A program made the translations under genes and the position numbers. From IMG/VR virus record IMGVR_UViG_3300043416_000189, positions 1 through 36,876 of that record: a DNA stretch of 36,876 nucleotides. One strand, given 5' to 3'. Of the stretch, positions 1,769 through 35,678 are shown in pieces (the stretch's first letter is position 1; every line of letters begins with the position of its first letter). The notes below the pieces were generated by a model. That model saw only the letters and a program-made list of their open reading frames with translations. It was not told the origin of the DNA and made no database searches. This stretch comes from a virus (taxonomy: Duplodnaviria > Caudoviricetes).

Positions 1769-2460
1769 GTACGACACACTCAGTCTGGATCGGGCCGCGC
1801 CTCGGCCTGATGGAAAAACTCACGCTTCAGCTTTTACTTGAAGTCGGACACAAGCCGATTCTCTGGACCAATCAAAAAGTCGCTGGCGTTCCCGACTTGG
1901 TGGAAGTGCGCCAAGTCCCGAAGGACTACGTGCAGCCGGTTGGATTCGCAGGCAATCCGCACACCGGCATTCCGAACGGCGGCATCGGCTCGTTTGCACA
2001 TTGGAGCGATTACTTCGCCTTCAAGATCCTTCACGATTACGGTGGGATCTGGGTGCAGATGGACGTGGCAGTCACGAAGAAGATCGTCGCGGAGGATTAC
2101 ACCTTCACGCCGTGGCTCTCGATGATCTCGCCTGTTGTCATGGCCATTCCGAAAGGCTCTGCCTACGCCTCAGAAATGTCTGATATTATCGGCGACATGC
2201 TCAAGGATGGCATGGCTGGACGCGACTGGCACGAAGCCATGATTGCAATGATTCAAGGCCTCCAGCGCAGTGGGATTTCATTCCGCACATTCGAAAATTA
2301 CTTCGACTGCGGCGGCGTGGCAGGCTCTCCATACACGCATCCGGTGGCGACACCCTACGACATCATCCACTGGTCGAACGCAACGCACAATACGAGCAAG
2401 GAAACGCCAACACGGGGCAGTGAGTATCACCGGCTCTGCAAGAGCGTGGGCTTAATTTGA
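1765..2460 (+). CDS. GT32/OCH1-like (sugar-binding DxD family) glycosyltransferase with a degenerate DxD
   Basis: HSVWIG at the N-terminus. SDYFAFKILHDYGGIWVQMDV resembles the family signature SDxxRxxxLxxYGGxWxDxD. Confidence 0.7.
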   Translation: MSTTHSVWIGPRLGLMEKLTLQLLLEVGHKPILWTNQKVAGVPDLVEVRQVPKDYVQPVGFAGNPHTGIPNGGIGSFAHWSDYFAFKILHDYGGIWVQMDVAVTKKIVAEDYTFTPWLSMISPVVMAIPKGSAYASEMSDIIGDMLKDGMAGRDWHEAMIAMIQGLQRSGISFRTFENYFDCGGVAGSPYTHPVATPYDIIHWSNATHNTSKETPTRGSEYHRLCKSVGLI

Positions 2461-2476
2461 CGAAACCGGCACAATG
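2457..2476 (+). promoter_or_regulatory. Late-gene motif TTGACG-N6-GC, 19 nt before GTG 2476
   Basis: TTGACGAAACCGGCACAAT|GTG. Confidence 0.7.
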
Positions 2477-2784
2477 TGAGCCTTGCCACTTATTTTGCTG
2501 CCGACTTTGCCGCCGTCCTTGGGGAACTACCGATCACCGTCACGTTTCAAGGCTCTACATTCTCGGCAAATCGGACAACATTTCGCTGCGAGAACAGCGT
2601 CGGGGATGGCGGATTTATGACGCAAATTGCGATGGTAATCACCGCGCCTTACAATTCCGTAACGCAGCAAATCAACCTTGGCGACGTGGTGGCGATTGAC
2701 GCTGCCAGCTTCCGCGTCGTCTCTGCGGAGTTGGCACAAGATGCCGTCTCAGTGGACTTCGCACTTCAGGACGTGAACAAATGA
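2476..2784 (+). CDS. Head-tail joining/closure protein (gpFII-like)
   Basis: 102-aa beta-rich ORF with GDVVAIDAASFRVV pattern, located between head and tail genes. Confidence 0.6.
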   Translation: MSLATYFAADFAAVLGELPITVTFQGSTFSANRTTFRCENSVGDGGFMTQIAMVITAPYNSVTQQINLGDVVAIDAASFRVVSAELAQDAVSVDFALQDVNK

Positions 2785-3251
2785 TTTTTTTCTCGACAAC
2801 ACCCGAACCGAAAAGCGCGGTCGCGACTACGACGCGCACGCTTGAAAAGGCAATCACCGACGCTTTTATTCGATATTTGCAGGCTGAATTTCAGAATGAC
2901 TTGACTGTCACATCGTCGGAGAACTTCGCCGCAATGACGTTGCCAGCGTGCTTTGTAAAGGCAACCCGGCAGTCGGAGTCGATTACGAACAGCGCAATTT
3001 TTCAATTCACGATTGACGTTGTTTTGGCAGTCCAAGCAGACGACGCAAACGCGCAAACTCTCGAAAATCTCTGGGCTGAATTACTGTGTGTGACACACGA
3101 TGTCTTTGGAATCGTGGACAAGCTCAACGCTATCGAGCCTAAATCCTGCCAAGTGTACGGCGTGTTGAGAGATGGGCCGGTTGCCCTCTCGACAACCGAC
3201 CGGCACTTTTTGCGCAGCGTCTCCGTGACGGTCCACACTGGGCTTCTCTAA
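2781..3251 (+). CDS. Putative tail terminator/completion protein
   Basis: 156 aa with an LPACFV motif, just upstream of the tail tube gene (synteny). Confidence 0.5.
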   Translation: MIFFSTTPEPKSAVATTTRTLEKAITDAFIRYLQAEFQNDLTVTSSENFAAMTLPACFVKATRQSESITNSAIFQFTIDVVLAVQADDANAQTLENLWAELLCVTHDVFGIVDKLNAIEPKSCQVYGVLRDGPVALSTTDRHFLRSVSVTVHTGLL

Positions 3252-3252
3252 G

Positions 3253-3618
3253 GTGAGAGCCGCGCTCGCCATCCTGCTTCTCGCATTGTCGGCATGCACT
3301 CCGACAAACCCTGAGCGGTGGATGGAAATGGAAAAGAACGCTTGCATGCCGACCGCAATCGCGATGGACGCAGGGCTTCGCAGGCAGGGCATCACCAGCC
3401 GCGTCTTGCAATACGGATACCAGCGCAACGGCAAGATCGCTGGGCATGCCGTGACGACATACTTCTTCGCGCCTGGCGAGAACAAGCTTTGGGCGTACGA
3501 CTTTGAAGGCAGCACGCGCATCCGCGCGTTTATCGACAATCCCATTCAGATCGCGACGCAGGCGGAGATTGCGCGCGGGCGTAATACGCGCGTCGTCTTT
3601 GCCGAGTTCCTCAACTGA
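3253..3618 (+). CDS. Lipoprotein with a papain/transglutaminase-like Cys-His-Asp pattern
   Basis: Signal peptide and lipobox LALSA-C, followed by NAC...GHAV...WAYD. Confidence 0.55.
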   Translation: MRAALAILLLALSACTPTNPERWMEMEKNACMPTAIAMDAGLRRQGITSRVLQYGYQRNGKIAGHAVTTYFFAPGENKLWAYDFEGSTRIRAFIDNPIQIATQAEIARGRNTRVVFAEFLN

Positions 3619-3619
3619 G

Positions 3620-3639
3620 TTGACAGTTTTTGCGAGGTA
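3620..3639 (+). promoter_or_regulatory. Late-gene motif TTGACA-N6-GC, 19 nt before ATG 3639
   Basis: TTGACAGTTTTTGCGAGGT|ATG. Confidence 0.75.
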
Positions 3640-4010
3640 TGGCCGCATCTGTCATCACCTCATCCTCTGCCGCGAGTGTTACTTTCGGCGCAACCGCCGA
3701 AACCGGCATCATCCTCTCCTCGTTCAACCGCTCCGTCCAAGGACAGAAGGCTGAACTCATGGACGAAGATGGCGATATTGTCGCCATCTCGACCTACGGA
3801 CGCACCGCAACCATCTCGATCTCAGGCGCAATCAACGGCGCAAGCGGAGTTGCCACAGCATCCGTCGGCAGCCTCTTGACCATCGCAAATGCTACGACCG
3901 AGTTCGGCGTGACCGGCGGCAAGATCGTTGTCGACAGCGTTTCTTCCGAGCAAAGCAGCGACACATTCCGCACCATGACGATTCAGGCAACGCAGTATCC
4001 GAGCATGTAA
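3639..4010 (+). CDS. Major tail tube protein
   Basis: 123-aa S/T/G/A-rich beta protein upstream of the chaperone and tape measure genes, followed by a hairpin. ATG 3639 is preferred over TTG 3630. Confidence 0.65.
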   Translation: MAASVITSSSAASVTFGATAETGIILSSFNRSVQGQKAELMDEDGDIVAISTYGRTATISISGAINGASGVATASVGSLLTIANATTEFGVTGGKIVVDSVSSEQSSDTFRTMTIQATQYPSM

Positions 4011-4874: not shown

Positions 4875-5125
4875 CATCCCCCAACTGGCTCGCGTCTTAC
4901 GTCTTCAGGCTCGCGAGCGCGACCGGCTGGGGGTTCAAAGAGTGCATGTGGGAAATCCCGTATGCGGCTGGCTTGCAAATTCTCGACGCCGATTCTTTCG
5001 CTCGTGGCATCCCGCGCGTGTACACGCGAAGCAATGAGAGGGAAGATTTTGACGCGCTCGCCGAAATAGAGCGGATTCTCAAAACTCACAAAACTCACAA
5101 AACTCACAATGGCGGGGAAATTTAA
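4871..5125 (+). CDS. -1 frameshift extension of the tail chaperone (gpT-like; fused product 4485..5125, about 213 aa)
   Basis: The -1 frame after GGGAAAG (4865-4871) is open for 84 codons: VASPNWLASYVFRLASATGWGFKECMWEIPY...NGGEI*. Not in the ORF track. Confidence 0.8.
   Translation, partial: VASPNWLASYVFRLASATGWGFKECMWEIPYAAGLQILDADSFARGIPRVYTRSNEREDFDALAEIERILKTHKTHKTHNGGEI
5081..5107 (+). repeat. Tandem repeat (AAAACTCAC)x3
   Basis: Encodes KTH x3 in the gpT frame and forms the leader of ATG 5109. Confidence 0.9.
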
Positions 5126-5897
5126 ATTCGACAAACAGAAGTTCGTGGAAATCCTTAAGGATTATTCCGAGATCGTTGAGAAGTCGATTCCCGATTGCGT
5201 GGCTCTCAATGCTCGCCTGCTTTGCGTAGAGTTAGCGAGGCGGACGCAGCCGTTCGGAACGAAGCCTGACGCTGGAGCCAAGCGCGTTGAATTGGATATT
5301 GGAAAGATTATTAAGACCGACCAAGCACTTGACGATATGGTTGCCGAAGTCTCAACCGAGAAAATCCGCAATCGCTTGCAAACTTTGGTGAAACAAAAGC
5401 GTTACGATGTCATCAAGATCATTCTGGAGCGGATTGGATTTTTGAAGAAGTGGGGCGAGCTTGAAGTCACAAACGACTTCAAAGCCATACACCAAGAGCA
5501 TCGCAAGCCGCGAGACGGGCGCACGCGAAACAGGGGTAACAAACTCTACATTGCCGAAGGAGACTTGCCTGGCTACATCGAAAGCGTCGCCAAGCGCGTC
5601 GGCATTGCAAAGTCTGGCTGGGCACGTTGCGCGGAGCAGCTTCCGCGAGTCATAAGCGGGAAGATGACACGAGGGATTCCCGACTGGGTCGTGGATCAGA
5701 CAAAGGCGACCGGCGAAATAGAAAACCACCTCGGGGACACATCGAACCCGCGAGTGCTGATGACAAACAAAGTGCCGTGGCTTAGTCGCATCTGCCCGCC
5801 AAGCGAACAGCTCAAAGCCTCGCAGGTCGTAGTCGCCAAAATGAAAAAGCAGATGGAGACGATCTTGAAGAAGCGAAAGAAGACTTTGACGGAGTGA
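5109..5897 (+). CDS. Putative neck/tail morphogenesis protein (basic)
   Basis: 262-aa K/R-rich ORF within the tail module. The function is inferred from position only. Confidence 0.45.
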   Translation: MAGKFKFDKQKFVEILKDYSEIVEKSIPDCVALNARLLCVELARRTQPFGTKPDAGAKRVELDIGKIIKTDQALDDMVAEVSTEKIRNRLQTLVKQKRYDVIKIILERIGFLKKWGELEVTNDFKAIHQEHRKPRDGRTRNRGNKLYIAEGDLPGYIESVAKRVGIAKSGWARCAEQLPRVISGKMTRGIPDWVVDQTKATGEIENHLGDTSNPRVLMTNKVPWLSRICPPSEQLKASQVVVAKMKKQMETILKKRKKTLTE

Positions 5898-5904
5898 CCT
5901 AGTA
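5886..5904 (+). promoter_or_regulatory. Late-gene motif TTGACG-N6-CC, 18 nt before the tape measure ATG
   Basis: TTGACGGAGTGACCTAGT|ATG. Confidence 0.65.
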
Positions 5905-8234
5905 TGGCTGATGTCACAGTAGAATTTGGAGCAAAGGACGCGGGACTATCGCAGACGTTGAAGAACGTCCAAAAGGAACTCGCCGAACTTGACACGCAGC
6001 AAAGAACAACGGCGATGTCCGCCGATGAGTTTCAAAAAACTCTCAGTCGCACCAAGCAGCTTGAGGGGATGGAGAAAAAACTTAGGTCGATGGGGGACTC
6101 AGCTTCAGACACAGCGCCCAAAATTGATCGACTCGGGAAAGAATTGCAGGACGTTGGCAACAAATCCGAAAATGCTGGCGGATTATTTGACTCGTCATTT
6201 GCAAAAATTACAGGCGCATTTACGCTTGGAAATATCGCCGCCGCTGGATTTAACAAGGCGATCAACCTTGCATTTAGCGGAGCGCAATCGGTGGCTCGGG
6301 GATTTGGTGACGCGCTTGATCTTGGCGGACGGCTTACGGATCTAAGCGCACGAACAGGTGAGGCCGCAGGCAAGTTGCTCGTATTGGAAACGGCTTTTAA
6401 AAACGCAGGACTCGGAGCCGAGATGGTAGGAACCGTCATAAACAAGCTGCAAAACTTTATGCAGGACGCGGCCAACGGCGGAGACAAACAAGCCACCGCA
6501 ATGACCGACCTGGGGATTTCGTTGGCAGAACTCAAAGGCAAGACACCTACCGAGCAGATGAAGGTTTTTGCCGACAAGATCGCGGCGATTGAAGATCCTA
6601 CGCAGAGAGCAGCGATGGCATCCGAAGTATTCGGTGACAAGCTTGGCGGTAAGTTGCTCCCACTTCTAACGGACTTCTCACCGGCGTTGGCTGATGCTCG
6701 CGGAAAAGTCGGATCGCTGGAACGCGTGATGAACGAAAACGCTGCGACGTTTGACGCAGCGGGCGAAACAATCGATGCCGTAAAAGGGAAGATGGCGGCA
6801 TTTGCTGCCGGTATTTTGAGCGAGGTTATTCCTGCCGTGGGTGGCTTAGGTGCTAGCATGGAAAAAGTGGACGCCGCTGGATTCGGCCAACGTGTCGGAG
6901 AATACCTGACTCCTCTAATTCAAGACCTAACAAATGCGACGAAAGGAGCGGCTTCCGCGCTGGGAGATATTTCTAACGCCAACACAAAAGCCGCTAACGA
7001 CACTGGAATCCTCGGATCTGCTTATCGTGGCGTGACAACATCGCTTGATGGATTCAATCAAATGATGGCCGATGCGTTTAAGTATTATACGCCATTTGGA
7101 TTCGCTATGAGCTACCTTGTGAAACGAGGCGAGGATTTAAGCGCTAGCCAAAAAGATGTCGGAACAACCGTTGCGACTTCCACCGGAAAAATTGAAGAGC
7201 TTGGAGAAAAAGCGAAAGAAACAGGCGCGGAAATTGGATCGGCATTTAATCTCAACTCAGACTTCAAGACTGCCATCGACGGGATCAGCTCTGCCTGGTC
7301 GAATTTCAACAGCGAGATAACTGGAACTACGCCACTGCTCGAAAGCAACTATTCGTATGCCGACTCTATCGCTGGGAAAATCGACGAGCAAACGCAAGGG
7401 ATCGGAGACTTAAACAAACAGCTCGATCTCTCCAAGAAACTCGAAGAGCAAATTAACAACATCAAGACCGTCCGCGTCGAAAAAGAAAAAGAATCAGCAG
7501 CCAAGGAAGCCGAACGCCAGTCCGATCTCCGCGAAAATCTTGAACTCGACCTGCAATCACTAAAGGCAAAGATCAGCGGAAACGAGCAAGAGCAAAAAGC
7601 GGTGCAATATAAAAAGGATTACAACGCCGCGCTAAAGCAGGCCATCGACGCAGGCATGGGCCAACCTGAAGCGAAATCATTTGCGGATGAAATTGCCCGC
7701 GCTCGCCAAGATCAGGCAGGCATGAATAAAGAATTATCAAAATCAGCCAGCATCCTGAAAAGCATTGCGGAAGCTGAATCGCAGCAGAGCATCGACAAGG
7801 GCGGGCGCTTGCAACAACGCGCTGAGAAGCAAATCCAAAAAGGACAATTTGAGTTAGCAAAAAGAACCGCCGAGCAGATCCGTCAAAGCGAAGTCGAGTC
7901 GAGCATTCGAGGGGAAGGATCAGGCCGCGACACCCGCAGCATGTACGATATTGGAAAATCTCTCGGGCTGAGTAAGCAGGACAAAGAAACAGGCTCCGAG
8001 TTTGCCCAGCGCGTCAAAGACGTTCAAGAGGGCAAGTCTGAAGTCATAGACAAATTTGGAAGGTCTAAAAAAAGGGACGGTCAACCGGAAGTCGACAGGC
8101 CCGGCGAGGACGGAAAAACAAAGCGAGACATGGAAAAGGAGAAACAGAAGCCTCTCGAAACTCTTGTGCTTGAAATCAAAAACCTTGTCGCAAAAATCGA
8201 ACCGAAACTCCCACAGCAAGCACTAGCATACTAA
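5904..8234 (+). CDS. Tail tape measure protein
   Basis: 776-aa A/G-rich helical protein with the typical DLSARTG...LGIS...VFG...LLPLL core, downstream of the frameshifted chaperone. Confidence 0.9.
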   Translation: MADVTVEFGAKDAGLSQTLKNVQKELAELDTQQRTTAMSADEFQKTLSRTKQLEGMEKKLRSMGDSASDTAPKIDRLGKELQDVGNKSENAGGLFDSSFAKITGAFTLGNIAAAGFNKAINLAFSGAQSVARGFGDALDLGGRLTDLSARTGEAAGKLLVLETAFKNAGLGAEMVGTVINKLQNFMQDAANGGDKQATAMTDLGISLAELKGKTPTEQMKVFADKIAAIEDPTQRAAMASEVFGDKLGGKLLPLLTDFSPALADARGKVGSLERVMNENAATFDAAGETIDAVKGKMAAFAAGILSEVIPAVGGLGASMEKVDAAGFGQRVGEYLTPLIQDLTNATKGAASALGDISNANTKAANDTGILGSAYRGVTTSLDGFNQMMADAFKYYTPFGFAMSYLVKRGEDLSASQKDVGTTVATSTGKIEELGEKAKETGAEIGSAFNLNSDFKTAIDGISSAWSNFNSEITGTTPLLESNYSYADSIAGKIDEQTQGIGDLNKQLDLSKKLEEQINNIKTVRVEKEKESAAKEAERQSDLRENLELDLQSLKAKISGNEQEQKAVQYKKDYNAALKQAIDAGMGQPEAKSFADEIARARQDQAGMNKELSKSASILKSIAEAESQQSIDKGGRLQQRAEKQIQKGQFELAKRTAEQIRQSEVESSIRGEGSGRDTRSMYDIGKSLGLSKQDKETGSEFAQRVKDVQEGKSEVIDKFGRSKKRDGQPEVDRPGEDGKTKRDMEKEKQKPLETLVLEIKNLVAKIEPKLPQQALAY

Positions 8235-9836: not shown

Positions 9837-10065
9837 ATGCGATTTTCAAAATTCCGCACGGGGGCATATTTCGTGCAGGCTTGGATTTTACGGGGGCAAA
9901 CCATTTCTGGGAAACTGTGTGGCGTGCATCCATCTCGGGGAAAACACCGAGGAGCATGCCAGACGCCTACATGAGAGGCATGCAAAATCACACCCTGACG
10001 GCGTAACAAGAATCAGCGGATGCTGTGACTCCGCGCGTAATTATTTGACATCCTCCGCCATTTAA
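9829..10065 (+). CDS. Small Cys-rich protein
   Basis: 78 aa with pattern C...C...CxxC...GCC. Confidence 0.55.
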   Translation: MDKCDFQNSARGHISCRLGFYGGKPFLGNCVACIHLGENTEEHARRLHERHAKSHPDGVTRISGCCDSARNYLTSSAI

Positions 10066-10067
10066 CA
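10045..10067 (+). promoter_or_regulatory. Late-gene motif TTGACA-N6-GC, 22 nt before ATG 10067
   Basis: TTGACATCCTCCGCCATTT|AACATG. Confidence 0.7.
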
Positions 10068-11674
10068 TGGCACGCGATCTCTTCATCGACCTCACGAATA
10101 ATCGGCTCGCTACGAGCGAAACCAACCTCTCACCGGCTGGCGTGCCGAGATTCACAAAGGGCGACACAGGCACTTTCAACCTCTATTTTCTACAGGCCAC
10201 CGGAATCGTTGGCGCGCCGTTCACCGTTGTCGATAAAACCAGCTCCAGCGTCAAACTTGGCGTAGGCTCACGCACAGGCACGCCCGAGACGGGAGCTTAT
10301 ACGCTCACATTCGGCGGGGACACCACCAGCGCGCTCGACGCAGCGGTAACAGCCGGACAAGTTCAAACCGCGCTCAACGCTCTTACAGCGATCTCCAGCG
10401 CGGGCGGCGTGACAGTGACAGGCCAACTCTCGGAGCAGTTCACAGTCCGCTTTACAACCGCAGGCACGCGCGGAAGCATCACAGCCGACGTCTCTCAGCT
10501 CATTCCTGATACCGTCGCCGTTATTGGCGAGCGCGTAGCAGGGAGCGCAACGGCAAAAGAGGTGCAGGAAATCGAATTGCGCTTGGCTCCCGCCGTATTC
10601 CAATCGACATGGACTAACCTCTCGACCGCCGTCACCGCCACGCTCGCGACTACAGTTACAGGCTCCGCAACAAACAACGAAGTTCAACGACTCTCGTTTT
10701 CGCAAAAGCCCTTCTCAGGCACCTACCGCCTGACAACGCCAAGCTCGTCAATCACGATTGGCTCGCTCGTAACTGCGGGCGTGTTTATCACATCCGCAAA
10801 CCACGGCCTTGCGCTCAACCAACCCGTAACGCTCACGGGATTTTCGGCGCTAACCGGCTATTCAAACGGCACACAGTATTTCGTAAAGGCTTTGCCACAG
10901 CCGACGCAGTTCACGGTTTCTGTGACGGCAGGCGGCACGGCGCTGACAGGCACAGCCACAACCGGCAGCGTCCTGACGACACTTCGCCAGACAGAGCCTC
11001 TTGCAGCCAACGCAACGGCGGAAGATATTGCGTCCGCATTGGCCGCGCTTGATTCGATAGGCGCTGGCGGCGTCACAGTCGCAGGCATTGAAGGCGAGTA
11101 TTATGACATCACATTTGCAGGGGCCAAGGGCTTTGCCGACCTGCCAGTGATGACAATCCAAAGCGGACTGACAGCCAAGCCGGGCAAGACCGCAGACGTC
11201 AATTTTGCAACCTACGCGTTGCGGGATTTGGTGGGCAACGAACAGGCAGTTGACCTCGATCTCGAAATCGAACTCACGGAAGGCGGCACACGGCAGACCG
11301 TGATTCTGAGCGCGTGCTCAGTCTCGGAAGAGTTGATCGACGCGGACGCATTCTCTCCCGTCCCTCAATTCTCGCTGCCGATCAACTCCGTGGCAGTCTC
11401 GGCCTATACGCTCGCGCTCTCCGACGCCTACGGCCTCATCAATGCGACTACCGGCATGACGATCACCGTGCCCCCGAACTCGACAGCGGCCTTCCCGACC
11501 GGCTCGCAGGTGCTCCTCTACCGCTCCGCAGTCAGCGGCGTGGCTGTGACAGCGGGGGCAGGGGTGACCGTAAACGCGGCGGGTGGCGCATCTGCATTGT
11601 CATTGCGTCACTCTATCGGGGCGCTGATAAAGCTCGGAACAAATGAGTGGGTGCTTGGGGGGGACGTATTGTGA
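10067..11674 (+). CDS. Tail fibre/baseplate-like structural protein
   Basis: 535 aa, T/A/G/S-rich. Two repeats of an ALxA...GGVTVxG module and an NHGLALNQPV module common in virion proteins. Confidence 0.65.
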   Translation: MARDLFIDLTNNRLATSETNLSPAGVPRFTKGDTGTFNLYFLQATGIVGAPFTVVDKTSSSVKLGVGSRTGTPETGAYTLTFGGDTTSALDAAVTAGQVQTALNALTAISSAGGVTVTGQLSEQFTVRFTTAGTRGSITADVSQLIPDTVAVIGERVAGSATAKEVQEIELRLAPAVFQSTWTNLSTAVTATLATTVTGSATNNEVQRLSFSQKPFSGTYRLTTPSSSITIGSLVTAGVFITSANHGLALNQPVTLTGFSALTGYSNGTQYFVKALPQPTQFTVSVTAGGTALTGTATTGSVLTTLRQTEPLAANATAEDIASALAALDSIGAGGVTVAGIEGEYYDITFAGAKGFADLPVMTIQSGLTAKPGKTADVNFATYALRDLVGNEQAVDLDLEIELTEGGTRQTVILSACSVSEELIDADAFSPVPQFSLPINSVAVSAYTLALSDAYGLINATTGMTITVPPNSTAAFPTGSQVLLYRSAVSGVAVTAGAGVTVNAAGGASALSLRHSIGALIKLGTNEWVLGGDVL

Positions 11675-12699: not shown

Positions 12700-12899
12700 T
12701 GCTTGACCACTACCGCACGATTGCCATCGGCTTTTTCGCGGCGGCGATCTTCTGTCTCCTCATGCTTCTCATGACCGGCTGCGCCGTCTCGTGGCCTACG
12801 AAGGCTGGCAACGTCACGCTGTCATTCAGCCCACCGCCCGAACTTATCAACAAATACGGCGCGCACGTTTTTGACTCGCCTACCAGACGAGACAAATGA
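12699..12899 (+). CDS. Lipoprotein (spanin-like candidate)
   Basis: Hydrophobic N-terminus with lipobox LMTG-C and a Pro-rich remainder, located between holin and lysin. Confidence 0.5.
   Translation: MLDHYRTIAIGFFAAAIFCLLMLLMTGCAVSWPTKAGNVTLSFSPPPELINKYGAHVFDSPTRRDK
12871..12896 (+). promoter_or_regulatory. Variant late-gene motif TTGACT-N6-CC, 25 nt before the endolysin ATG
   Basis: TTGACTCGCCTACCAGACG|AGACAAATG. Confidence 0.45.
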
Positions 12900-21356: not shown

Positions 21357-21788
21357 ATGAACGAACCGCGTGACGCCGCAGAATATGACGAAGCCAGCTA
21401 CGAGGTGGATTTTGTGTCCCTTTGCGATGCTGACTCACTCAAGGGGATTCGCCTATTCCCGACAGAGCCATCAATGTCAGCATACCGCGAGGCCAGTGAG
21501 AGGATGATGGGGACGTTAAACACTTTCATCACATTCTTATCCGAGCACGGATACGGCAAAAGCAAAACCCTTTGGGGAATCGCCTACGCTCTCGGGCATC
21601 CGCTCACAGCGGGCATGTCCATGCTCGAAGCCGCGCGTTACCTGGGATGCACGAAACAGGCGATCAGCAAGATCGCGTGTGACTTTCTGACCGAGACGGG
21701 GCTGCCTCCCTCATCGGCACTTAAAAGCGAAGAGGCAAAATCAACCTACAAAATAACAAATGGAAATCGTAAATACACTCACGCTTGA
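21357..21788 (+). CDS. HTH protein resembling sigma region 4 (candidate late transcription regulator)
   Basis: GMSMLEAARYLGCTKQAISKIA, located at the end of the replication module. Confidence 0.55.
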   Translation: MNEPRDAAEYDEASYEVDFVSLCDADSLKGIRLFPTEPSMSAYREASERMMGTLNTFITFLSEHGYGKSKTLWGIAYALGHPLTAGMSMLEAARYLGCTKQAISKIACDFLTETGLPPSSALKSEEAKSTYKITNGNRKYTHA

Positions 21789-26521: not shown

Positions 26522-26558
26522 CGTCCGCAGAGCTAGTGTTCATGCGGCTCTGCGGGCG
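26522..26558. terminator. GC-rich hairpin after TerL
   Basis: CGTCCGCAGAGC-13 nt-GCTCTGCGGGCG. It is followed by an A run rather than a U run, so the function is uncertain. Confidence 0.35.
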
Positions 26559-26592
26559 GCAAAAAATAATTTCATTTTCTTGAAAATAATTG

Positions 26593-26621
26593 TTTACAAA
26601 AAATCAAATGCGTGAGATAGT
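26593..26621 (+). promoter_or_regulatory. Sigma70-like promoter for the ligase cassette
   Basis: TTTACA-17 nt-GATAGT with an extended-10 TG and an AT-rich UP-like tract. Confidence 0.55.
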
Positions 26622-26674
26622 CATTCCAGATCGAAGCCACCACGGCGGAGACAAAAACAAAAAACCAAAACAAT

Positions 26675-27433: not shown

Positions 27434-27623
27434 ATCGAAAAAACCCACCACCCACGGCGGCCCGCGCAAAGGCGCGGGCCGTCCGAAAGGCAAGAAGAAC
27501 GCCAACGCCAAAGGCCGGACAGCCGTGACGCGCTCCGTCTCCATGCCAGCCGAGGTCTGGCGGGATTTCGATATTCAGCGAGGAACGATGAGCAGAGGGA
27601 AGTTTATCGCATGGCTTCTTTGA
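27426..27623 (+). CDS. Small DNA-binding protein (GGxRxGAGRP motif plus ribbon-helix-helix-like)
   Basis: HGGPRKGAGRPKG...TRSVSMPAEVW...SRGKFI, ATG 27426. Confidence 0.6.
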   Translation: MSKSKKPTTHGGPRKGAGRPKGKKNANAKGRTAVTRSVSMPAEVWRDFDIQRGTMSRGKFIAWLL

Positions 27624-27639
27624 CACCCTCGCCCAAGGA
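27620..27639 (+). promoter_or_regulatory. Late-gene motif TTGACA-N6-CC, 19 nt before ATG 27639
   Basis: TTGACACCCTCGCCCAAGG|ATG. Confidence 0.75.
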
Positions 27640-27887
27640 TGGCGCAAAATTCCACTTTTTTCGGGCTTCCGCTTGCAACGCTTCAAAGCTTGCAGGAAAA
27701 ATATATCGCATGCCTTGAGGCAATCGCCGTTGCGGGGGCGAGTTACAGCATCGCGGGGCGCTCGTTTACTCGGGCGAATTTAACCGAGGTCTCGAACATC
27801 GTCGGGCAGTTGCAATCTGCTATTGAGTATGCAAGTGGTTCTCGGGTGAAGCGTACCGTCACAGCCTTTTCGACACAGCGCCCTTAG
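27639..27887 (+). CDS. Head completion protein (gpW-like)
   Basis: 82 aa, GASYSIAGRSFTRANL, directly before the portal as in lambda. Confidence 0.75.
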   Translation: MAQNSTFFGLPLATLQSLQEKYIACLEAIAVAGASYSIAGRSFTRANLTEVSNIVGQLQSAIEYASGSRVKRTVTAFSTQRP

Positions 27888-27889
27888 TA
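27870..27889 (+). promoter_or_regulatory. Variant motif TCGACA-N6-CC, 19 nt before the portal ATG
   Basis: TCGACACAGCGCCCTTAGT|ATG. Confidence 0.6.
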
Positions 27890-29961
27890 TGAAACAAGAC
27901 TTTTTTACGCGCGCTCTGGCAGTTGTCGCACCGAAGGCGGCAATGGCCCGCATGATTGCGCAAGACCGCCTGCGCAACTTTGGGCGGTTCGACGCGGCGC
28001 TCGAATCCAGTAAGCGCGGGATCAGTCGCAACATCGCCGGAGGCGAGGACACGAGCGGCACAGCCGAGCGTTACAAGCTTATCCGCGCTGCGCGTGACTT
28101 GGCCGACAACTTCCCACCGGTGCGCTCGTTACTCCTGAAATTTGCAACCTATGTCTCGGGCCGTCTCTCCTACCAAGCCCGCACCGGCAACAAGGATCTC
28201 GACGCGCAGGTTGAGCGATACTGGTCCGACTGGTGCAGCAAGTGCGATTTCCTACGCCGTCACGATTTCACCACCCTGCTTCAGCTCGCAGTCATGGCCA
28301 TCCTTCGCGATGGCGACTGCGGGTTTGTAATCGTCCGCGAAGCCGGAGAACTCCGCTTGCAGAGCGTGGAAGCCGACCGCATTGGCTCGCCCTACAATCG
28401 CTTAATCGACTCGGACAAATACATCGGCGGAATCATGCTGGATGAATACGGGAGGCCGGACAAGTACCAAATCTATGTTCGCACGATAAACAACCAATAT
28501 CTCGACCCGACCGACATTGACGCAGCGGAATTTATTCACCTATTCGACGCCACGCGACTGGACGAATATCGCGGACGCTCCGCATTTGCCACGGCGCTCA
28601 ACGCCGCGCGGGACTTGCAAGAGGCGTTGAAGGCCGAGATCCAAGCGATCAAATACGCCAGCTATCAGACCGGCGTCATCACCACCGAAAACGGATCGGC
28701 GGACGCATCCGACTACTTCGCGGCCAGCTCACGGAATGACAACGGGCAAACCGAGAAGCTCTCGAATATCGACCCCGGCGCGATCAATTATCTTTCGCCT
28801 GGCGAGAAGATGGAAATGTTCCAAAGCGAGCGCCCAGGCGGAGCGTTCGGCGAGTTCATCCGGCTGGTGCAATCGCACATTTGCATGAGCGTCGGGCTTC
28901 CCTACGGCTTTGCGTTCGACGCAGACAAGAGCGGTCCGATGGCACGCATGGAGGCAGCTATGGCCGAGCGCACTTTTGCGCGTTGGCGCGGGCTTCTTGA
29001 ATCACAGTTTCTAAACCGCATCAAGAACATTGTCCTTCTCGACGCCGCCGCGCGCGGGGAGATTGACGACTCGGAGTTTTTGCTGGACGGACGCTGGTGT
29101 TGGCCAGCAAAGGTCAGTATCGATTACGGACGCGAGGCGACTGCCGACATCGCGCTCTGGAAAGCGGGACTGAAGACAGCCGGTCAGATTTACTCAGACG
29201 CTGGCGAGGACTACGAAGAAGCACTCCGCGCAAGGGCGAAAGAGGCCGCTATGATCGTTGATCTTGCGGAGGAAATGGACATCCCTGCGCAATACATTTC
29301 CGACTCCGTGCCAATGCCGAAGGCAAATGAGATCCAGCCAGTCATCGCACCGCAGCCGACGCCAGAACCCGCACCCACACCGGATCCGCAACAGGCCGCA
29401 GCCTCGCAATTTGAGGACGGCAAAAACAAGCCGACCTCTGGCATGATCGCCGAAGCCAAGAAGGGGTTGGAGTGGCGCGCGAAATACAATCGCGGCGGGA
29501 CGAATGTCGGAGTTGCACGCGCTCGCGACATCTCGAACGGCGAAAATCTTTCCGAAGATACCGTCAAGCGGATGCATAGCTATTTTTCGCGGCACGAAGT
29601 TGATAAAAAGGGGCAGGGTTTTCAACCAGGAGAAGAGGGCTTTCCTTCCGCAGGCCGCATTGCATGGGCATTGTGGGGCGGTGACGCAGGCCAGACATGG
29701 GCGGCGGCGAAGGCGCGCAGCATCTCCGCAAAGGAAGCGGCCAAGAAAGGTCTCAACATGAAATTCCAACGCGACGCGCACGGACGGGTTGCCAGCCTAT
29801 CTCTCCCAAGCCTGACCGAGTTTGTCATTCCATCCCCTACGGGGAGCGAGTCTGAAAAGGATTTCATCCCTCGCTGTATGGCGGATGACACCATGCTCGC
29901 AGAATTTCCAGATACAACCGAACGCGCGGCAGTCTGCTACGCACAACTTAAATCAAAATGA
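27889..29961 (+). CDS. Portal protein (lambda family) with a long C-terminal extension
   Basis: ARDLADN, RDGDC, EADRI, GI.LDEYGRP, IHLF..R....RG and L.PGE, then a Pro-rich linker and extra domains. Confidence 0.88.
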   Translation: MKQDFFTRALAVVAPKAAMARMIAQDRLRNFGRFDAALESSKRGISRNIAGGEDTSGTAERYKLIRAARDLADNFPPVRSLLLKFATYVSGRLSYQARTGNKDLDAQVERYWSDWCSKCDFLRRHDFTTLLQLAVMAILRDGDCGFVIVREAGELRLQSVEADRIGSPYNRLIDSDKYIGGIMLDEYGRPDKYQIYVRTINNQYLDPTDIDAAEFIHLFDATRLDEYRGRSAFATALNAARDLQEALKAEIQAIKYASYQTGVITTENGSADASDYFAASSRNDNGQTEKLSNIDPGAINYLSPGEKMEMFQSERPGGAFGEFIRLVQSHICMSVGLPYGFAFDADKSGPMARMEAAMAERTFARWRGLLESQFLNRIKNIVLLDAAARGEIDDSEFLLDGRWCWPAKVSIDYGREATADIALWKAGLKTAGQIYSDAGEDYEEALRARAKEAAMIVDLAEEMDIPAQYISDSVPMPKANEIQPVIAPQPTPEPAPTPDPQQAAASQFEDGKNKPTSGMIAEAKKGLEWRAKYNRGGTNVGVARARDISNGENLSEDTVKRMHSYFSRHEVDKKGQGFQPGEEGFPSAGRIAWALWGGDAGQTWAAAKARSISAKEAAKKGLNMKFQRDAHGRVASLSLPSLTEFVIPSPTGSESEKDFIPRCMADDTMLAEFPDTTERAAVCYAQLKSK

Positions 29962-30958: not shown

Positions 30959-30963
30959 ATAAT

Positions 30964-31806: not shown

Positions 31807-31810
31807 AAAA

Positions 31811-32248
31811 ATGGACACTTGGAATTTAGTTTACGACACCGCAACTGGCCAAGGCGTGAGCATCGGCACAGTGATTGCGAACCCGCTCCCCGCCAACCTC
31901 ACTGCACTGGAATTGAGCGAGGAGCAATCCACCGCCATTCTCAGCGGTGCGATGGTATGGGATGCAGACACGCTCTCACTTATCCCGACCCCACGCCCTC
32001 TTGTAACTGCTATTCAACATCTCGAGAGCGTTGGACTCGGCAGCGACTACCAGCCGACTCTCATCTACCTTCGCATCAACTTAACCGCTGCCAACAAAAC
32101 ATGCACGGAACTCGACGCGCTGGAATCCTATTTGCAAGGCGTGTTGGCGATTTTCGCGCAAGACCAAAATCCTCGAAATGACTGGGCAATGCCACCCGTG
32201 ACCTTTGACGCGGCAGTCATTGCATCGATGTCCGAACTCTCATCTTAA
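31811..32248 (+). CDS. Hypothetical protein (possible fibre chaperone)
   Basis: ATG 31811 after an A-run. Follows the fibre-like genes. Confidence 0.55.
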   Translation: MDTWNLVYDTATGQGVSIGTVIANPLPANLTALELSEEQSTAILSGAMVWDADTLSLIPTPRPLVTAIQHLESVGLGSDYQPTLIYLRINLTAANKTCTELDALESYLQGVLAIFAQDQNPRNDWAMPPVTFDAAVIASMSELSS

Positions 32249-32254
32249 AAAACC

Positions 32255-32875
32255 ATGGCGAACGAACTCAACACAGCACAGGCAACCAGCGGGCTAACGA
32301 TCACCGCGCAACTCTTCCAGACCGGCGCGGCAGTTGGCTCCGCGATAACATGCGCGGAGGTTGGAAGCTCAAGGTTTTATTCCGCGAACATGCCAGTCAT
32401 CACAGCAGGCACGTATCAAGTTGTTTTTTATCAGTCGGGCGTCACGCCACTCTCAAGCGGGACGATTGCGTGGAACGGCACGGCTGAAATTTTGGTGAAC
32501 GATCTCTCGACCGCTACCACCGCAGGCATTGCGGATGCTGTCTGGGACGAAGCCACGAGCGGGCACACAACCAGCGGAACCTACGGCGGGCGAATCGTGC
32601 GCTCGACTAACGCGAACGTTGAGTTGGCAATAAACGCTCAGAATAATGCCGCTGCCAATGTTCATCAATTTCAGACCGGCGTAATCGTCTCAGGTGCTTT
32701 TGATGCTGGCGTACTGACCGCATTTGCTGTTCCTGAATTGCAGGAAATCCACCTTATTCACGGCCTAAAATCTGGAAGTGCGTTGACCGTCACACCTTCA
32801 AGTCGTGCGGCTGGTGCGATCTCGCAAAACATAACCGGCGACGGAGTCGCCAGCACAACCGTCACGCGAGTCTAA
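32255..32875 (+). CDS. Putative structural protein
   Basis: 206 aa, T/A/G/S-rich, with IADAVWDE...H...GT.G motif. Confidence 0.55.
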   Translation: MANELNTAQATSGLTITAQLFQTGAAVGSAITCAEVGSSRFYSANMPVITAGTYQVVFYQSGVTPLSSGTIAWNGTAEILVNDLSTATTAGIADAVWDEATSGHTTSGTYGGRIVRSTNANVELAINAQNNAAANVHQFQTGVIVSGAFDAGVLTAFAVPELQEIHLIHGLKSGSALTVTPSSRAAGAISQNITGDGVASTTVTRV

Positions 32876-32878
32876 GCC

Positions 32879-33361
32879 ATGCTTGTCAGCCTGCTCATCG
32901 CAACGCAGGGTCTGCTACCAAGCCCCACGCCGCTTTCAATCGGCATCCAGGGGCTTCTAGACCCGAACGCAGTAACGCCGGAACCGCCGCCGATTGTAAG
33001 CGGGCGGGATTTACCTGGCGGGTTCTATCGGCACGGGCAGAGAGTAATCGTCGAAATTGCGCGCGGCGTATCTGCGAAACTCAGCACCGCAGATGTCGGG
33101 ATTTCAATATCGACAGCCGCAAACGTGCGCGGATTCTCATTCCTTTCAGGAAGCGGCCTTGCGGACGTATCGACATGCGAAAAATTTTTCTTGCAGGGCA
33201 ACGTGCAAAACATTTCAGCCAATCGCGTGCGGCAGTCGATTTCATGTTCATTCGACGTCGTATATTCCCGCGAAGACGACGAAGCGGAAATGTTGCTACT
33301 CGCTCAGGCCGCGCTTGAGGAAATGTTTTTGCAGAGCATCATTGACCAATACGACGATTGA
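32879..33361 (+). CDS. Hypothetical protein
   Basis: 160 aa with repeated TQGLL/IQGLL at the N-terminus. Confidence 0.6.
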   Translation: MLVSLLIATQGLLPSPTPLSIGIQGLLDPNAVTPEPPPIVSGRDLPGGFYRHGQRVIVEIARGVSAKLSTADVGISISTAANVRGFSFLSGSGLADVSTCEKFFLQGNVQNISANRVRQSISCSFDVVYSREDDEAEMLLLAQAALEEMFLQSIIDQYDD

Positions 33362-33366
33362 TTCTT

Positions 33367-33386
33367 TTGACATCGCTGCCTCGGCA
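33367..33386 (+). promoter_or_regulatory. Late-gene motif TTGACA-N6-CC, 19 nt before ATG 33386
   Basis: TTGACATCGCTGCCTCGGC|ATG. Confidence 0.75.
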
Positions 33387-34234
33387 TGAGCGACGTCATC
33401 GAAGCAGTATCCATCATCTCAGTCGGCGAGGCCAAAGGCCACGGACTCTACGTGGACGCGCAGACATTGCGCGAAGTTAAGGCATGCGCGGAGACCTATG
33501 CGGGCGGCGTCAAAGTCAATCTCGACCACGGTGCGGGAATCAAAGACATCATCGGCTTTGTCGATAACTTTCGCATCGTCGGAGAAAAGCTCCTCGGAGA
33601 TTTGAACCTTTTGCAAAACGCAGACCGGCGAGCCTACGTCTTGGAAATTGCCGAGAAGCTACCCGACACATTCGGCATCTCGATTGCATTCAGCGGGCCT
33701 GTGCGGGACATCGGCGGCAAGAGTTTTGCGTCGTGCGAGGAACTTTACTCTGCCGACTTGGTGCAGACACCCGCAGCGAATCCCACCGGCCTCTTCAGCT
33801 TCGAGGCAAAGCCAGTTGACAAAATTTCCAAGCAAATGGAAGACACACCCGAAATCGAAATCGAACCCAAGGAAGACGAAGTGAGCATTGCCGACATCGT
33901 CTCCCGTCTCAGCGCCCTTGAATCCGCCTTTGGCGATTACAAGAAGGCAATGGAAGCCGCTCCCGAAGAGCCAAAGGATGAGCCAATGAAGGACTCTGAA
34001 ATGTCCAAGCTCGAAGCCAAGCTCGACACGATCATTTCAAACTTTGGCGCAGCTCCCATGAAGGCATCCGCTGCCGCCGAAGTTCCTGCCGAAGTCAAAT
34101 TTGATCTGAAGAATTTGATCGAAGCGAAAACTGCAGAACTCGGCTCCAAGACCGCCGCAATCAAATTTGCGATGTCGAATCACCCCGCTGAATACATCGC
34201 CCTCCGCGACTCCAACCAACTCAACAACCTCTAA
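33386..34234 (+). CDS. Prohead protease fused to a scaffold domain
   Basis: GEAKGHG, LDH, FGISI and ADLV..PAANP.GLF, then an acidic helical C-terminal half. Upstream of cement and MCP. Confidence 0.75.
   Translation: MSDVIEAVSIISVGEAKGHGLYVDAQTLREVKACAETYAGGVKVNLDHGAGIKDIIGFVDNFRIVGEKLLGDLNLLQNADRRAYVLEIAEKLPDTFGISIAFSGPVRDIGGKSFASCEELYSADLVQTPAANPTGLFSFEAKPVDKISKQMEDTPEIEIEPKEDEVSIADIVSRLSALESAFGDYKKAMEAAPEEPKDEPMKDSEMSKLEAKLDTIISNFGAAPMKASAAAEVPAEVKFDLKNLIEAKTAELGSKTAAIKFAMSNHPAEYIALRDSNQLNNL
33816..33836 (+). promoter_or_regulatory. Intragenic late-gene motif TTGACA-N6-CC, 20 nt before in-frame ATG 33836
   Basis: TTGACAAAATTTCCAAGCA|AATG. Confidence 0.65.
33836..34234 (+). CDS. Nested in-frame scaffolding protein (132 aa)
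   Basis: ATG at codon 151 (MEDTPEIEIEP...), at the domain boundary and preceded by the late motif. Analogous to lambda Nu3 within C. Confidence 0.6.
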   Translation: MEDTPEIEIEPKEDEVSIADIVSRLSALESAFGDYKKAMEAAPEEPKDEPMKDSEMSKLEAKLDTIISNFGAAPMKASAAAEVPAEVKFDLKNLIEAKTAELGSKTAAIKFAMSNHPAEYIALRDSNQLNNL

Positions 34235-34246
34235 TCTACTCACACC

Positions 34247-34600
34247 ATGGCATCCCAAACTGACATTCCATTCCGCTCGTTCACATTCGCGTCCGCGCTC
34301 TCAGGTAACACGCTCGTCCGTTGCTCGGGCGACAACGCAGCCGCAGCACTCGTAACCGCCTCTGAAGTCATCGGCGTCCTTCAAGACGACGTTGCCGCCG
34401 CTGGCGTTGGCGAAGTGAAACTCTTCAAGGCAACTCAATTCGGAATCGTTTCGCCTGGTCCCGTGACCGCTGGCAATTCGGTTTTTGCCACAACCGGCGG
34501 CGTGATTGTCGGAACGCTCGTCACCTCTGGCGTGACTCTCGGCACCGCAATCAACTCCGGCGTAACCGGCGACATCATCGAGTTCGCAATTCGTCTCTAA
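34247..34600 (+). CDS. Capsid cement/decoration protein (DUF2190-like)
   Basis: 117 aa, A/G/V/T-rich, with IGVLQ.D...G.A......GDIIE, immediately before the MCP. Confidence 0.7.
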   Translation: MASQTDIPFRSFTFASALSGNTLVRCSGDNAAAALVTASEVIGVLQDDVAAAGVGEVKLFKATQFGIVSPGPVTAGNSVFATTGGVIVGTLVTSGVTLGTAINSGVTGDIIEFAIRL

Positions 34601-34634
34601 GCACCTGATCGAAACACTCAACTAACTAACTACC

Positions 34635-35594
34635 ATGTCACTCACCACTACCACAATTCGCGGAGACATCGCACAGGCCGTTTACGAGGGCCGCTCGAAC
34701 AAGCAAAACCTCTTCATCGGTGCCGAAGTCATGCCGATCTACGTTGCAGACGTTCGCTCTGGCGAGTATCTGAAAATCAACCTGGGCGCATCTGAGGCAC
34801 TTAACGACGACGCGACCAAGATCGCCGCTGGCTCTGCATATCCCCGCGTTGGCCGCAAGTTCACATCGGATACATTCGCGACTACCGAGTACGGTCTTGA
34901 GGAAGTGCTCCCCGACGCAACTCAGCGCGACCTAGCCCGATTCCTCGACGTTGAGGTCGCCGTTGCCGACATGCTCCTCAGCCAGATCCAAATCGGCCAC
35001 GAGCTTCGCGTTGCCTCGCTCACCTACGCAGCGAACGGCATCACAGCCATCTCCGCCGCCGGTGCAACAGCCGCTTATACCGAAGCCAACATCACAACCT
35101 TCGATCTCGCAGCCGACGTTGCCGCAGGCAAGTTGGAACTCGCTAAATATGGCGTGCTTCCAAACACGCTTGTCATGTCCGCAGTCCTGTTCGAGCGCGT
35201 CCGCCGCTCGACCAAGGTTCAAAATCAAATGTTCGGCGTAGTCGCCACGAACTCAACTCGCCTCCTCTCCGAGCAAGAAGTTGCTCAAGCAGTCGGCGTG
35301 GAAAAGGTCCTTGTTGGCCGCGCTCCTCGCAACACTGCGAAGAAGGGTCAAACTTACTCAGGCGGATTCGTCTGGGGTGACAGTTACATCGCACTCGCCA
35401 ACACAGTTGGCGGTGAGTTCGCAGCCGGTGGATTCGGTCGCACGATCCTCTGGGGCGCTGATAGCCCAGTGCCTTTCGTCTCCGAGACCTACCGCGACGA
35501 AGCCCGCCGCTCCAACATCCTCCGCGTGCGTCAGCACGTATCCGAGAAGGTCGTTGACGGCTCCTCGATCATCCGCATCACGACCGGCCTGTAA
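34635..35594 (+). CDS. Major capsid protein (lambda gpE-like)
   Basis: 319 aa with FIGAEVMP, E.RVA, G..PNTLVM and ETYRDE. Follows protease and cement and is followed by a strong terminator. Confidence 0.85.
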   Translation: MSLTTTTIRGDIAQAVYEGRSNKQNLFIGAEVMPIYVADVRSGEYLKINLGASEALNDDATKIAAGSAYPRVGRKFTSDTFATTEYGLEEVLPDATQRDLARFLDVEVAVADMLLSQIQIGHELRVASLTYAANGITAISAAGATAAYTEANITTFDLAADVAAGKLELAKYGVLPNTLVMSAVLFERVRRSTKVQNQMFGVVATNSTRLLSEQEVAQAVGVEKVLVGRAPRNTAKKGQTYSGGFVWGDSYIALANTVGGEFAAGGFGRTILWGADSPVPFVSETYRDEARRSNILRVRQHVSEKVVDGSSIIRITTGL

Positions 35595-35613
35595 AAAGAT
35601 CACGGTTCACATC

Positions 35614-35643
35614 AAGCCCGCTCTCACAAGGAGCGGGTTTTTT
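35614..35643 (+). terminator. Rho-independent terminator after the major capsid gene
   Basis: AAGCCCGCTC-TCACAAG-GAGCGGGTTT followed by TTT. Confidence 0.85.
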
Positions 35644-35652
35644 GTTGCCCTT

Positions 35653-35678
35653 TTGACATCGCTCCCTTGGCAGAAACA
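35653..35678 (+). promoter_or_regulatory. Late-gene motif TTGACA-N6-CC, 25 nt before ATG 35678
   Basis: TTGACATCGCTCCCTTGGC|AGAAACATG. Matches the 33367 copy at 18 of 20 nt and lies just after the terminator. Confidence 0.72.

Follow-up and report, generated by a model that had tools for sequence, protein, structure and literature searches.

A conserved TTGACA-N7-C module before late genes in a group of related phages is a candidate compact promoter for leaderless transcripts

The late promoters of phage T4 consist of a single element, TATAAATA, that is read by gp55/gp33, and T7-like single-subunit RNA polymerases also use compact promoters. In the Thermus phage Lalka27a, late promoters with a TAGGGT -10 element and a C conserved at -25 produce leaderless transcripts, and the authors infer a phage factor that alters the specificity of the host polymerase (bioRxiv 10.64898/2026.04.20.719267). 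Start-linked words of another kind occur in Cluster K mycobacteriophages, where 13-bp start-associated sequences (SAS/ESAS) lie 3-7 bp before start codons (PMC3203893). About 10% of the start sites in Akkermansia muciniphila are leaderless and show ordinary -35/-10 logos (PMC4782308). Here we describe a 36,876-nucleotide stretch of viral DNA (Duplodnaviria; Caudoviricetes), called the window below, which spans the entire viral contig of record IMGVR_UViG_3300043416_000189. Its late genes are preceded by a short module, TTGACA-N7-C-N5-A. Counting the first T as position 1, the cytosine is position 14 (C14) and the adenine is position 20; offset denotes the distance from the first T to the start codon. 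The module is real and strand-specific, and related phages keep it, at the level of DNA, in front of one constant set of late genes. Judging from these sequence features, we consider it probable, without strong conviction, that TTGAC(A/G)-N7-C-N5-R is a compact late promoter specific to these phages, whose RNAs would have no leader or almost none.

We compared the module to these described systems. Like T4 and T7-like promoters, it would end within ~20 bp upstream of the RNA start and consists of an upstream recognition block followed by an A/T-richer block. Those promoters need a phage specificity protein, whereas searches of the window proteins revealed nothing resembling gp55 or another sigma factor and no single-subunit polymerase, and the word itself differs. 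The Thermus phages Lalka27a and phiYS40 have dense late promoters in co-directional blocks, as the modules would be, and like the modules these have one extra invariant cytosine. RNA synthesis there begins at the initiator codon (A or G), which is the start we predict for the window modules. The geometry is different: in the Thermus phages TAGGGT lies 6 nt before the start and the C at -25, whereas the window modules have no -10 element, a hexamer at about -19 to -14 and a C at about -6. The start-associated sequences of Cluster K resemble the module in being asymmetric, one-orientation words upstream of some starts that are ATG-biased, conserved between subclusters and without an assigned function (PMC3203893). 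They are GGGATAGGAGCCC-like, contain a Shine-Dalgarno (SD) core, precede non-structural genes only and have a proposed role in translation. The window module, in contrast, stands 13-19 nt from the start, lacks an SD core and is found in front of late virion genes as well as a non-coding element. Searches of the literature turned up no account of a TTGACA box so placed or with such a geometry.

The module is strongly associated with start codons in the window. A sequence-only reading of this DNA had listed ten copies of a TTGACR-N6-SC motif about 19 nt before starts, and all ten are present where it placed them and with the spacings it gave (Table 1). Eight of them fit TTGAC(A/G); the copy at 27870 is TCGACA and that at 12871 is TTGACT. 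Positions 13-14 do read S-C in all ten listed copies, but S13 is a mere preference and C14 is the invariant base. The A at offset 19 in the four longer-spaced copies was borne out. Eight of the 52 plus-strand TTGAC words lie 18-25 nt before one of the 58 predicted starts, where 0.65 would be expected (binomial P 3e-7). The plus strand has nine TTGACA words and the minus strand one. Five of the six plus-strand TTGACA-N7-C copies precede annotated starts (P 2e-9), and the other stands in front of an internal, in-frame ATG at 33836; the remaining three plus-strand TTGACA words have neither C14 nor a start. The end of the hexamer is 13-14 nt from the ATG in most copies. TTGACA is also the most enriched 6-mer within 30 nt upstream of starts (6 of 58 regions, against 9 copies genome-wide); the second-ranked, ACAAAA, reflects the A/CA-rich leaders of most other genes. 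The full pattern TTGACRN6SC is likewise enriched: it matches 18 times on both strands compared with 7.14 +/- 2.6 in shuffled sequences (0 of 100 shuffles reach 18), and these matches include the eight TTGAC(A/G) copies.

Table 1. Modules, associated signals and gene blocks of the window, with one element from related loci
Feature	Position	Strand	Start codon and offset	Remarks
Module before g2476	2457..2478	+	GTG, 19	Weaker copy, TTGACG-N7-C
Module before g3639	3620..3641	+	ATG, 19	TTGACA-N7-C; g3639 is a 123-aa late protein of unassigned role
Module before tape-measure gene	5886..5906	+	ATG, 18	Weaker copy, TTGACG-N7-C
Module before 535-aa tail-fibre-like gene	10045..10069	+	ATG, 22	A at position 20
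Doubtful copy before endolysin gene	12871..12898	+	25	TTGACT-N7-C
Module before head-tail adaptor gene	27620..27641	+	ATG, 19	Stop of open reading frame 27381-27623 falls within the hexamer
Word before portal gene	27870..27891	+	19	TCGACA-N7-C
Module before protease/scaffold gene	33367..33388	+	ATG, 19	
Module within protease gene	33816..33838	+	ATG 33836, 20	In-frame, nested scaffold-type start
Module before glycosyltransferase GT4 gene	35653..35680	+	ATG, 25	A at position 20
Intrinsic terminator 3' of major capsid gene	35614..35650	+		11-pair stem (hairpin 35614-35640) and T run, followed at once by the 35653 module
Canonical sigma70-type promoter-like site before ligase insert	26593..26621	+		TTTACA-17-GATAGT with TG
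g21357	21357..21788	+		Conserved 143-aa protein, predicted helix-turn-helix, upstream of terminase genes
Non-coding element of ~100 nt	L049:3021-3133			Same place in L047, L052, L053, L065, L067, L068, L073, L074 and L078
Glycosyltransferases, several late genes of unassigned role, then tape measure	tape measure 5904	+		PHROGs/Pfam
535-aa tail-fibre-like protein, LamG protein, M15 endolysin	tail fibre 10067; endolysin 12896	+		PHROGs/Pfam
Replication/recombination block: RuvC, Sak4, exonuclease, SSB, initiator, DnaB, ParB-like, methyltransferase		+		PHROGs/Pfam
TerS, TerL, ATP-dependent ligase		+		PHROGs/Pfam
Head-tail adaptor, portal, protease	27639; 27889; 33386 (in-frame internal ATG 33836)	+		PHROGs/Pfam
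Major capsid protein, then glycosyltransferase GT4	34635; 35678	+		PHROGs/Pfam

The module is conserved among related phages. We collected 146 related loci through portal and capsid searches of viral contigs (70-100% protein identity) and five complete or nearly complete relatives, G001-G005, whose proteins are 40-90% identical to those of the window. TTGACA occurs 617 times on the coding strand of the 146 loci and 122 times on the other strand. Of the coding-strand copies, 154 have an ATG at offset 19, 178 at offset 20, 59 at offset 23 and 58 at offsets 25-26; control hexamers gave no comparable ATG-offset peak in these loci. C14 is present in 224 of the 225 unique TTGACA copies with an ATG at offset 19 or 20, and its frequency is 100%, 99% and 100% in offset classes 19, 20 and 23-25, respectively. 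Because this frequency is 99-100% in all classes, C14 keeps its distance from the hexamer, whatever the position of the ATG. Considering all unique plus-strand TTGACA words, C14 is found in 287 of 305 start-linked and 54 of 125 unlinked copies, and most of the latter 54 belong to two conserved families.

Conservation follows the same late genes from one phage to the next, counted here as unique orthologous upstream regions. TTGACA is found before g3639 in 25 of 26 regions (with a module in all five complete relatives), before the protease gene in 59 of 61, where the upstream flanks are unrelated between subgroups, and before orthologues of the internal scaffold start at 33836 in 38 of 39. It precedes the adaptor gene in 44 of 52 regions, the other eight having TTGACG, and the GT4 gene in 35 of 46, with seven more one base off; GT4 orthologues keep C14 at ATG spacings of 23-26. 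Gene g1765 carries TTGACA in 21 of 30 regions and lacks it in the window itself. Weaker copies behave similarly. The tape-measure gene has TTGACA in 2 of 18 regions, with ten more that differ at position 6 alone, and g2476 has TTGACG in 18 of 29 and TTGACA in one of 29, with modules in G001, G003 and G004. Other genes consistently lack the word: portal (0/59; TCGACA in 13), capsid (0/43), g34247 (0/58), g29958 (0/66) and g32879 (0/61). Overall, TTGACA or TTGACG/T stands at 268 of 301 unique orthologous upstream sites when they are scored for a -35-like hexamer, and all 43 one-mismatch variants at orthologous sites change hexamer position 6 alone. Position 6 is the weakest position of the -35 consensus.

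The complete relatives show the same distribution. Each of G001-G005 has 6-9 coding-strand TTGACA-N7-C copies and 0-3 on the other strand, most of them before the same late genes. The absence of modules from replication genes, claimed for the window, was confirmed there, as no TTGACA occurs within 10046-27619, the span that holds these genes; nor does a module precede any homologue of the window's replication genes in G001-G005, whose replication regions hold a few copies without a start or before open reading frames (ORFs) that have no window homologue. The tail-fibre gene illustrates how the parts of the module move together: across six genomes the ATG lies at offsets 22, 24, 24, 20, 22 and 25 behind unrelated spacers, and TTGACA, C14 and A20 are all kept in 6/6. 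The expectation that spacing and C14 would be kept in relatives thus held for C14 and for the set of late genes, but not for the copies at 27870 and 12871. The TCGACA at 27870 is probably a near-match generated by the coding sequence of the adaptor gene, and G004, the sole complete relative with this endolysin, has TTAATT at the site of the endolysin copy. Both copies probably lack a function as modules, which leaves eight of the ten that had been listed.

The main rival to a promoter is a signal that acts in RNA. UUGACA-N7-C within a polycistronic late mRNA would then be a start-associated translation element, and the ribosome or a phage RNA-binding activator would place or unmask the AUG 13-19 nt downstream in a host with few SD sites. 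We regard this as unlikely, though as a contender to be taken seriously. It would account for the strict coupling to start codons, mostly at offsets 19-20 and including the internal in-frame start, and it fits the A/CA-rich leaders, rather than SD sites, on most other genes. The start-associated sequences known from Cluster K mycobacteriophages provide a precedent (PMC3203893). The hexamer itself has no complementarity to the anti-SD sequence as read from the sequence: it lies 13-19 nt before the ATG without a GGAGG-like core, and the preceding 13 nt are G+C-rich with a C at -6. The earlier statement that the phage lacks SD sites was too strong, since good SD-like words precede several genes, for example those at 9829 and 17038.

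Several observations distinguish a word selected in DNA from one selected in RNA. C14 and the purine at position 20 stay at a fixed distance from the hexamer as the AUG shifts to 20-26 nt, which argues against a ribosome-directed signal. In the GT4 family, position 20 is A in 14/14 copies at offset 23, and at offset 25 it is A in nine and G in five. Within the protease gene, T2, C5 and C14 of the internal module are third codon positions and are kept in 100% of 38 unique sequences, compared with a typical major-base frequency of 0.42-0.63 at neighbouring third positions. The codon that ends in C14 encodes S, F, D, L or A. This pattern suggests nucleotide-level selection within the protease coding region. 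The internal start defines a candidate nested scaffold gene, 33836-34234 within the protease gene at 33386-34234, which looks similar to the lambda C/Nu3 arrangement. TTGACA is also depleted where it is not part of a module. On the non-transcribed strand, TGTCAA was observed 122 times against 298 expected (ratio 0.41, ~2.5-fold depletion), and sense TTGACA without an ATG at offsets 19, 20, 23, 25 or 26 numbers ~168 (617 minus 449) against 417 expected. Depletion away from the modules is expected of a DNA signal and not of an RNA signal.

One module stands before an element that has no start codon, which an RNA signal for translation would not explain. Ten relatives of the 70%-identity group have the ligase region replaced by a terminator, a module, a ~100-nt element, a second module and then the adaptor ATG. 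The element lies between TerL and the adaptor gene, contains no ORF and has indels that are not multiples of three; it carries a terminal hairpin with five compensatory pairs and a T run. All ten modules before it have C14; nine have A and one has G at position 20, and the sequence conservation of the element starts exactly at module position 20. Neither Rfam nor ARAGORN recognised the element, which could be a phage small RNA. The ligase insert occupies its place in the window, and the module that had been noted directly after this insert is indeed the copy at 27620.

Modules also abut strong terminators, after the capsid gene and, in some relatives, before the adaptor gene. The terminator that the sequence-only reading saw behind the capsid gene is a strong one and precedes the 35653 copy, and G003 and G004 have equivalent hairpins upstream of their modules. 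With modules in this position, the downstream genes need re-initiation within ~20 nt. Little read-through RNA is expected directly after a terminator, and a translation signal there would have little to act on.

The same junctions bear on a third explanation, which we hold to be more doubtful than the RNA-level signal: that the module is a DNA-binding site without promoter activity. A regulator from phage or host, such as a repressor, an anti-terminator loader or an RNA-processing guide, would sit at gene boundaries and modulate transcripts begun elsewhere, or the site would mark endonucleolytic cuts that create short-leader mRNAs. An asymmetric conserved word with one invariant distal base is typical of protein-binding sites, a conserved helix-turn-helix (HTH)-like protein is encoded beside the terminase genes, and the missing -10 box agrees with such a role. 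The intervals between terminator and start hold no other promoter-like sequence, though, and canonical sigma70-like sites in the window are no commoner than in shuffles (6 vs 6.2; 14 vs 10.8). Processing requires a precursor RNA, which the terminators would remove. Finally, the fixed purine 19 nt downstream of the first T, together with the conservation of the non-coding element from that base onward, fits an RNA 5' end made there.

RNA folding gave evidence on both sides of the translation question. Spacers of the protease, g3639, adaptor and scaffold families form hairpins around the AUG that are more stable than those of shuffled spacers (mean z -1.4 to -2.1), and in this they resemble hairpins opened by an activator. 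The other four of the eight families show no extra hairpin stability, the AUG is no more paired than with shuffled spacers, and the pairings with the first codons differ between subgroups. A hairpin was therefore rejected as a core feature of the module. In the window, the 13-20 nt preceding module-linked ATGs are poorer in A, richer in G+C and lower in folding energy than those of other starts (P 0.04-0.06), and with low A, higher G+C and more structure they are poor regions for internal initiation. We consider start-region structure a secondary feature, compatible with an AUG that would be poorly accessible in read-through RNA and free in RNA initiated at the start codon.

We examined whether the hexamer could be an ordinary -35 box. 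In that case the -10 element would lie within the first codons and RNA would start ~35 nt downstream, inside the gene. TTGACA is the -35 consensus, and TTGACA-17-(-10) geometry is used before the ligase gene and in the phage P8625. TANNNT, however, occurs at spacers 15-19 in 0-0.8% of 264 unique module instances, and at any of 52 hexamer positions (spacers 1-52) in 0-3.4%, in agreement with the earlier remark that no consistent TATAAT accompanies the motif. The start codons lie 18-26 nt from the first T, and a canonical RNA start would miss them even though the proteins are conserved from residue 1 onward. Nor would an ordinary -35 box explain the constant distance of 19-20 nt to the ATG. We give an ordinary -35 box almost no credence.

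Other known promoter classes did not fit either. If T2-G3 is read as the TG of an extended -10 element, the hexamer becomes CA plus N4 with no T at the last position and with mixed G/C/T at position 10, and this assignment was rejected. The Bacteroidetes -7/-33, sigma54 -24/-12, sigma32 and sigma28 classes were dropped on sequence and on consensus features, as they have the wrong spacing or bases that the module is missing. Ordinary promoter-like sites do exist in these genomes. The site before the ligase insert (Table 1) reads TTGACG-17-GATAGT in relatives, and its -35/-10-like form indicates that the host polymerase probably reads ordinary -35/-10 promoters. A further site, TTGACA-16-TATAAG at L049:3339-3368, occurs in ~20 relatives of the 70%-identity group within adaptor coding sequence and ~60 nt ahead of the portal start. 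It also carries C14, is absent from the window and may be either an internal promoter of the canonical kind or a chance product of the coding sequence.

We compared the window with the cultured phages that match it best. Verrucomicrobia phage P8625 (NC_029047.1) gave the best cultured-phage TerL match by bits and E value (23% identity, 96% coverage, E 2e-31). All of its genes are co-directional and their order is similar to that of the window. TTGACA stands, on the same strand and likewise at boundaries of late genes, exactly 36 nt before four annotated ATGs in P8625 and never at 19-26 nt, the range of the window modules. Three of these four ATGs have a -10-like hexamer (TATTGG, TATTGG, TATCTG) 7 nt upstream, whereas the window modules have none. 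In place of a -10 element, the window modules have the invariant C14. One of the four genes, gp22 of P8625, reads TTGACA-17-TATCTG-7-ATG, a canonical leaderless geometry; these promoters are likewise read from sequence. The first ~200 residues of gp22 align with the window tail-fibre protein from residue 1 (29% identity, E 5e-16), over the N-terminal 207 aa of the latter. A promoter is thus expected at the tail-fibre gene boundary because gp22 has a canonical promoter-like site there, and the links to P8625 lend comparative support to a promoter at that boundary. They also hint, if weakly, that the host is a member of the Verrucomicrobia. Synechococcus phage S-CBS3, whose portal is 28% identical, has no start-linked TTGACA.

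Our working model for the favoured reading, a compact late promoter, is as follows. Host RNA polymerase, redirected by a phage factor (possibly g21357), would bind TTGAC(A/G) at about -19 to -14; alternatively, sigma region 4 would be repositioned. The C at -6 would be used in binding, the A/T-richer stretch from -5 to -1 would be melted, and RNA would start at the A/G of position 20, ~19 nt after the first T and at or a few bases from the start codon. The base composition downstream of the hexamer is consistent with this division, positions 8-14 being G+C-rich and positions 15-20 A/T-richer. The predicted mRNAs would have no leader at offset 19, a leader of 1 nt at offset 20 and leaders of 3-6 nt at offsets 22-25. 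Transcripts from the modules would provide fresh message for certain virion genes, both downstream of terminators and within long late operons of co-directional genes, and the protease-internal transcript would make the nested scaffold protein. The leaderless promoter proposed earlier gains indirect support from the findings that the DNA word is fixed to itself, is kept at synonymous sites, precedes a non-coding element, abuts terminators and lacks a -10 box at every spacing; the leaderless start itself is a prediction.

A number of results weigh against this model. The proposed geometry matches no known polymerase-promoter complex, as a -10 element would not fit downstream of a -35-type hexamer that begins at -19; TANNNT is rare at the canonical spacers and at every other spacer scored, and the stretch from -12 to -7 is G+C-rich. 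Nor does a purine occupy position 20 in every copy: the base is T in GT4 copies at offset 24 (5/5), in tape-measure copies at offset 20 (3/3) and at 4/20 scaffold sites. The depletion of TGTCAA ranks just 179th of 4009 hexamers, and the linkage to start codons, including the internal one, is equally expected of a translation signal. PHROGs and Pfam searches found neither a phage RNA polymerase nor a phage sigma-like (gp55/gp33) gene, distant relatives of which could escape such searches. The candidate regulator g21357 shows sub-threshold HTH_23 in 13/30 and HTH_3 in 8/30 family members, its Foldseek matches are weak (all HTH regulators, best E 0.31, with no significant fold match), and G003 has no g21357 homologue and yet keeps its modules. 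A look-up for RNA runs over 27000-36876 listed none. A scan of contig ends with a degenerate protease-start pattern speaks for neither side, as it returned 120 mostly unrelated loci; of the ~6 true relatives among them, none begins at the ATG.

We looked further at g21357. The overlapping gene g21760 (174 aa) and g21357 are both kept in four of the five complete relatives. The AlphaFold model of g21357 has a predicted local distance difference test score (pLDDT) of 79-92 over residues 41-120, and a PDB sequence-profile search gave chance matches only. Its candidacy as a relative of sigma region 4 found no support, as the nearest named Atlas cluster (score 0.75) carries Sigma70_r4 on 10% of its members, and neither did a relationship to the sigma factor of phage S-CBS3 (hhalign probability 0.26%). 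That g21357 regulates the modules is a guess. The window genome has no unassigned ORF above 535 aa, in contrast to what a T7-like single-subunit polymerase would need.

The consequences would be considerable if the module is a promoter. Polymerase would then need no -10 element to initiate and would use a -35-type word that lies 16 bp nearer the start than usual, and to our knowledge no described sigma-promoter complex has such a geometry. We see an even chance that the module defines a new class of bacterial promoter, with a lone -35-type hexamer at -19 to -14, a C at -6, no -10 element and activation by a small phage protein, which would produce leaderless late mRNAs gene by gene as well as a small RNA and a nested scaffold in a large group of freshwater phages, probably of Verrucomicrobia. 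Such a promoter would explain restart after terminators, the dosing of virion proteins, the nested scaffold and translation with little leader in common lake phages. It would also improve the annotation of gene starts and operons in thousands of metagenomic phage contigs and offer a compact, portable expression signal.

The window represents a complete genome. Bases 1-127 are identical to bases 36750-36876, and these identical ends indicate a complete, circularly permuted genome of ~36.7 kb. ORF 3-614, which is open at its 5' end, is the C-terminal part of the GT4 glycosyltransferase that starts at 35678. All predicted genes lie on the plus strand, and their assignments come from PHROGs (56 window proteins scanned) and Pfam (30 proteins). 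We found no tRNA genes and no Rfam family match in the window, no near-identical cultured phages, and no prophage relatives in scans of genome contigs with the portal or g21357 alignment.

Three further features of the window were recorded. The ATP-dependent ligase region (26493-27433) has a long A-rich leader, is missing from all five complete relatives and looks like a recently acquired moron. A small basic ORF at 27426-27623, kept in G002 and G005, begins within the last part of the ligase gene and has its stop codon in the adaptor module (TTGA); it has no Pfam match, and by eye its product resembles a small DNA-binding protein. The leader of g5109 (window 5080-5108) consists of three tandem CAAAACTCA copies and is an extreme instance of the CA-rich leaders that precede many module-free genes.

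Short palindromes and near-palindromes are strongly avoided in the window and in the 146 related loci. GTAC-containing hexamers, GGWCC, GGGCCC and CCGCGG are strongly under-represented, and GAATTC, GAGCTC and AGATCT are absent from the window. This avoidance suggests pressure by host restriction systems.

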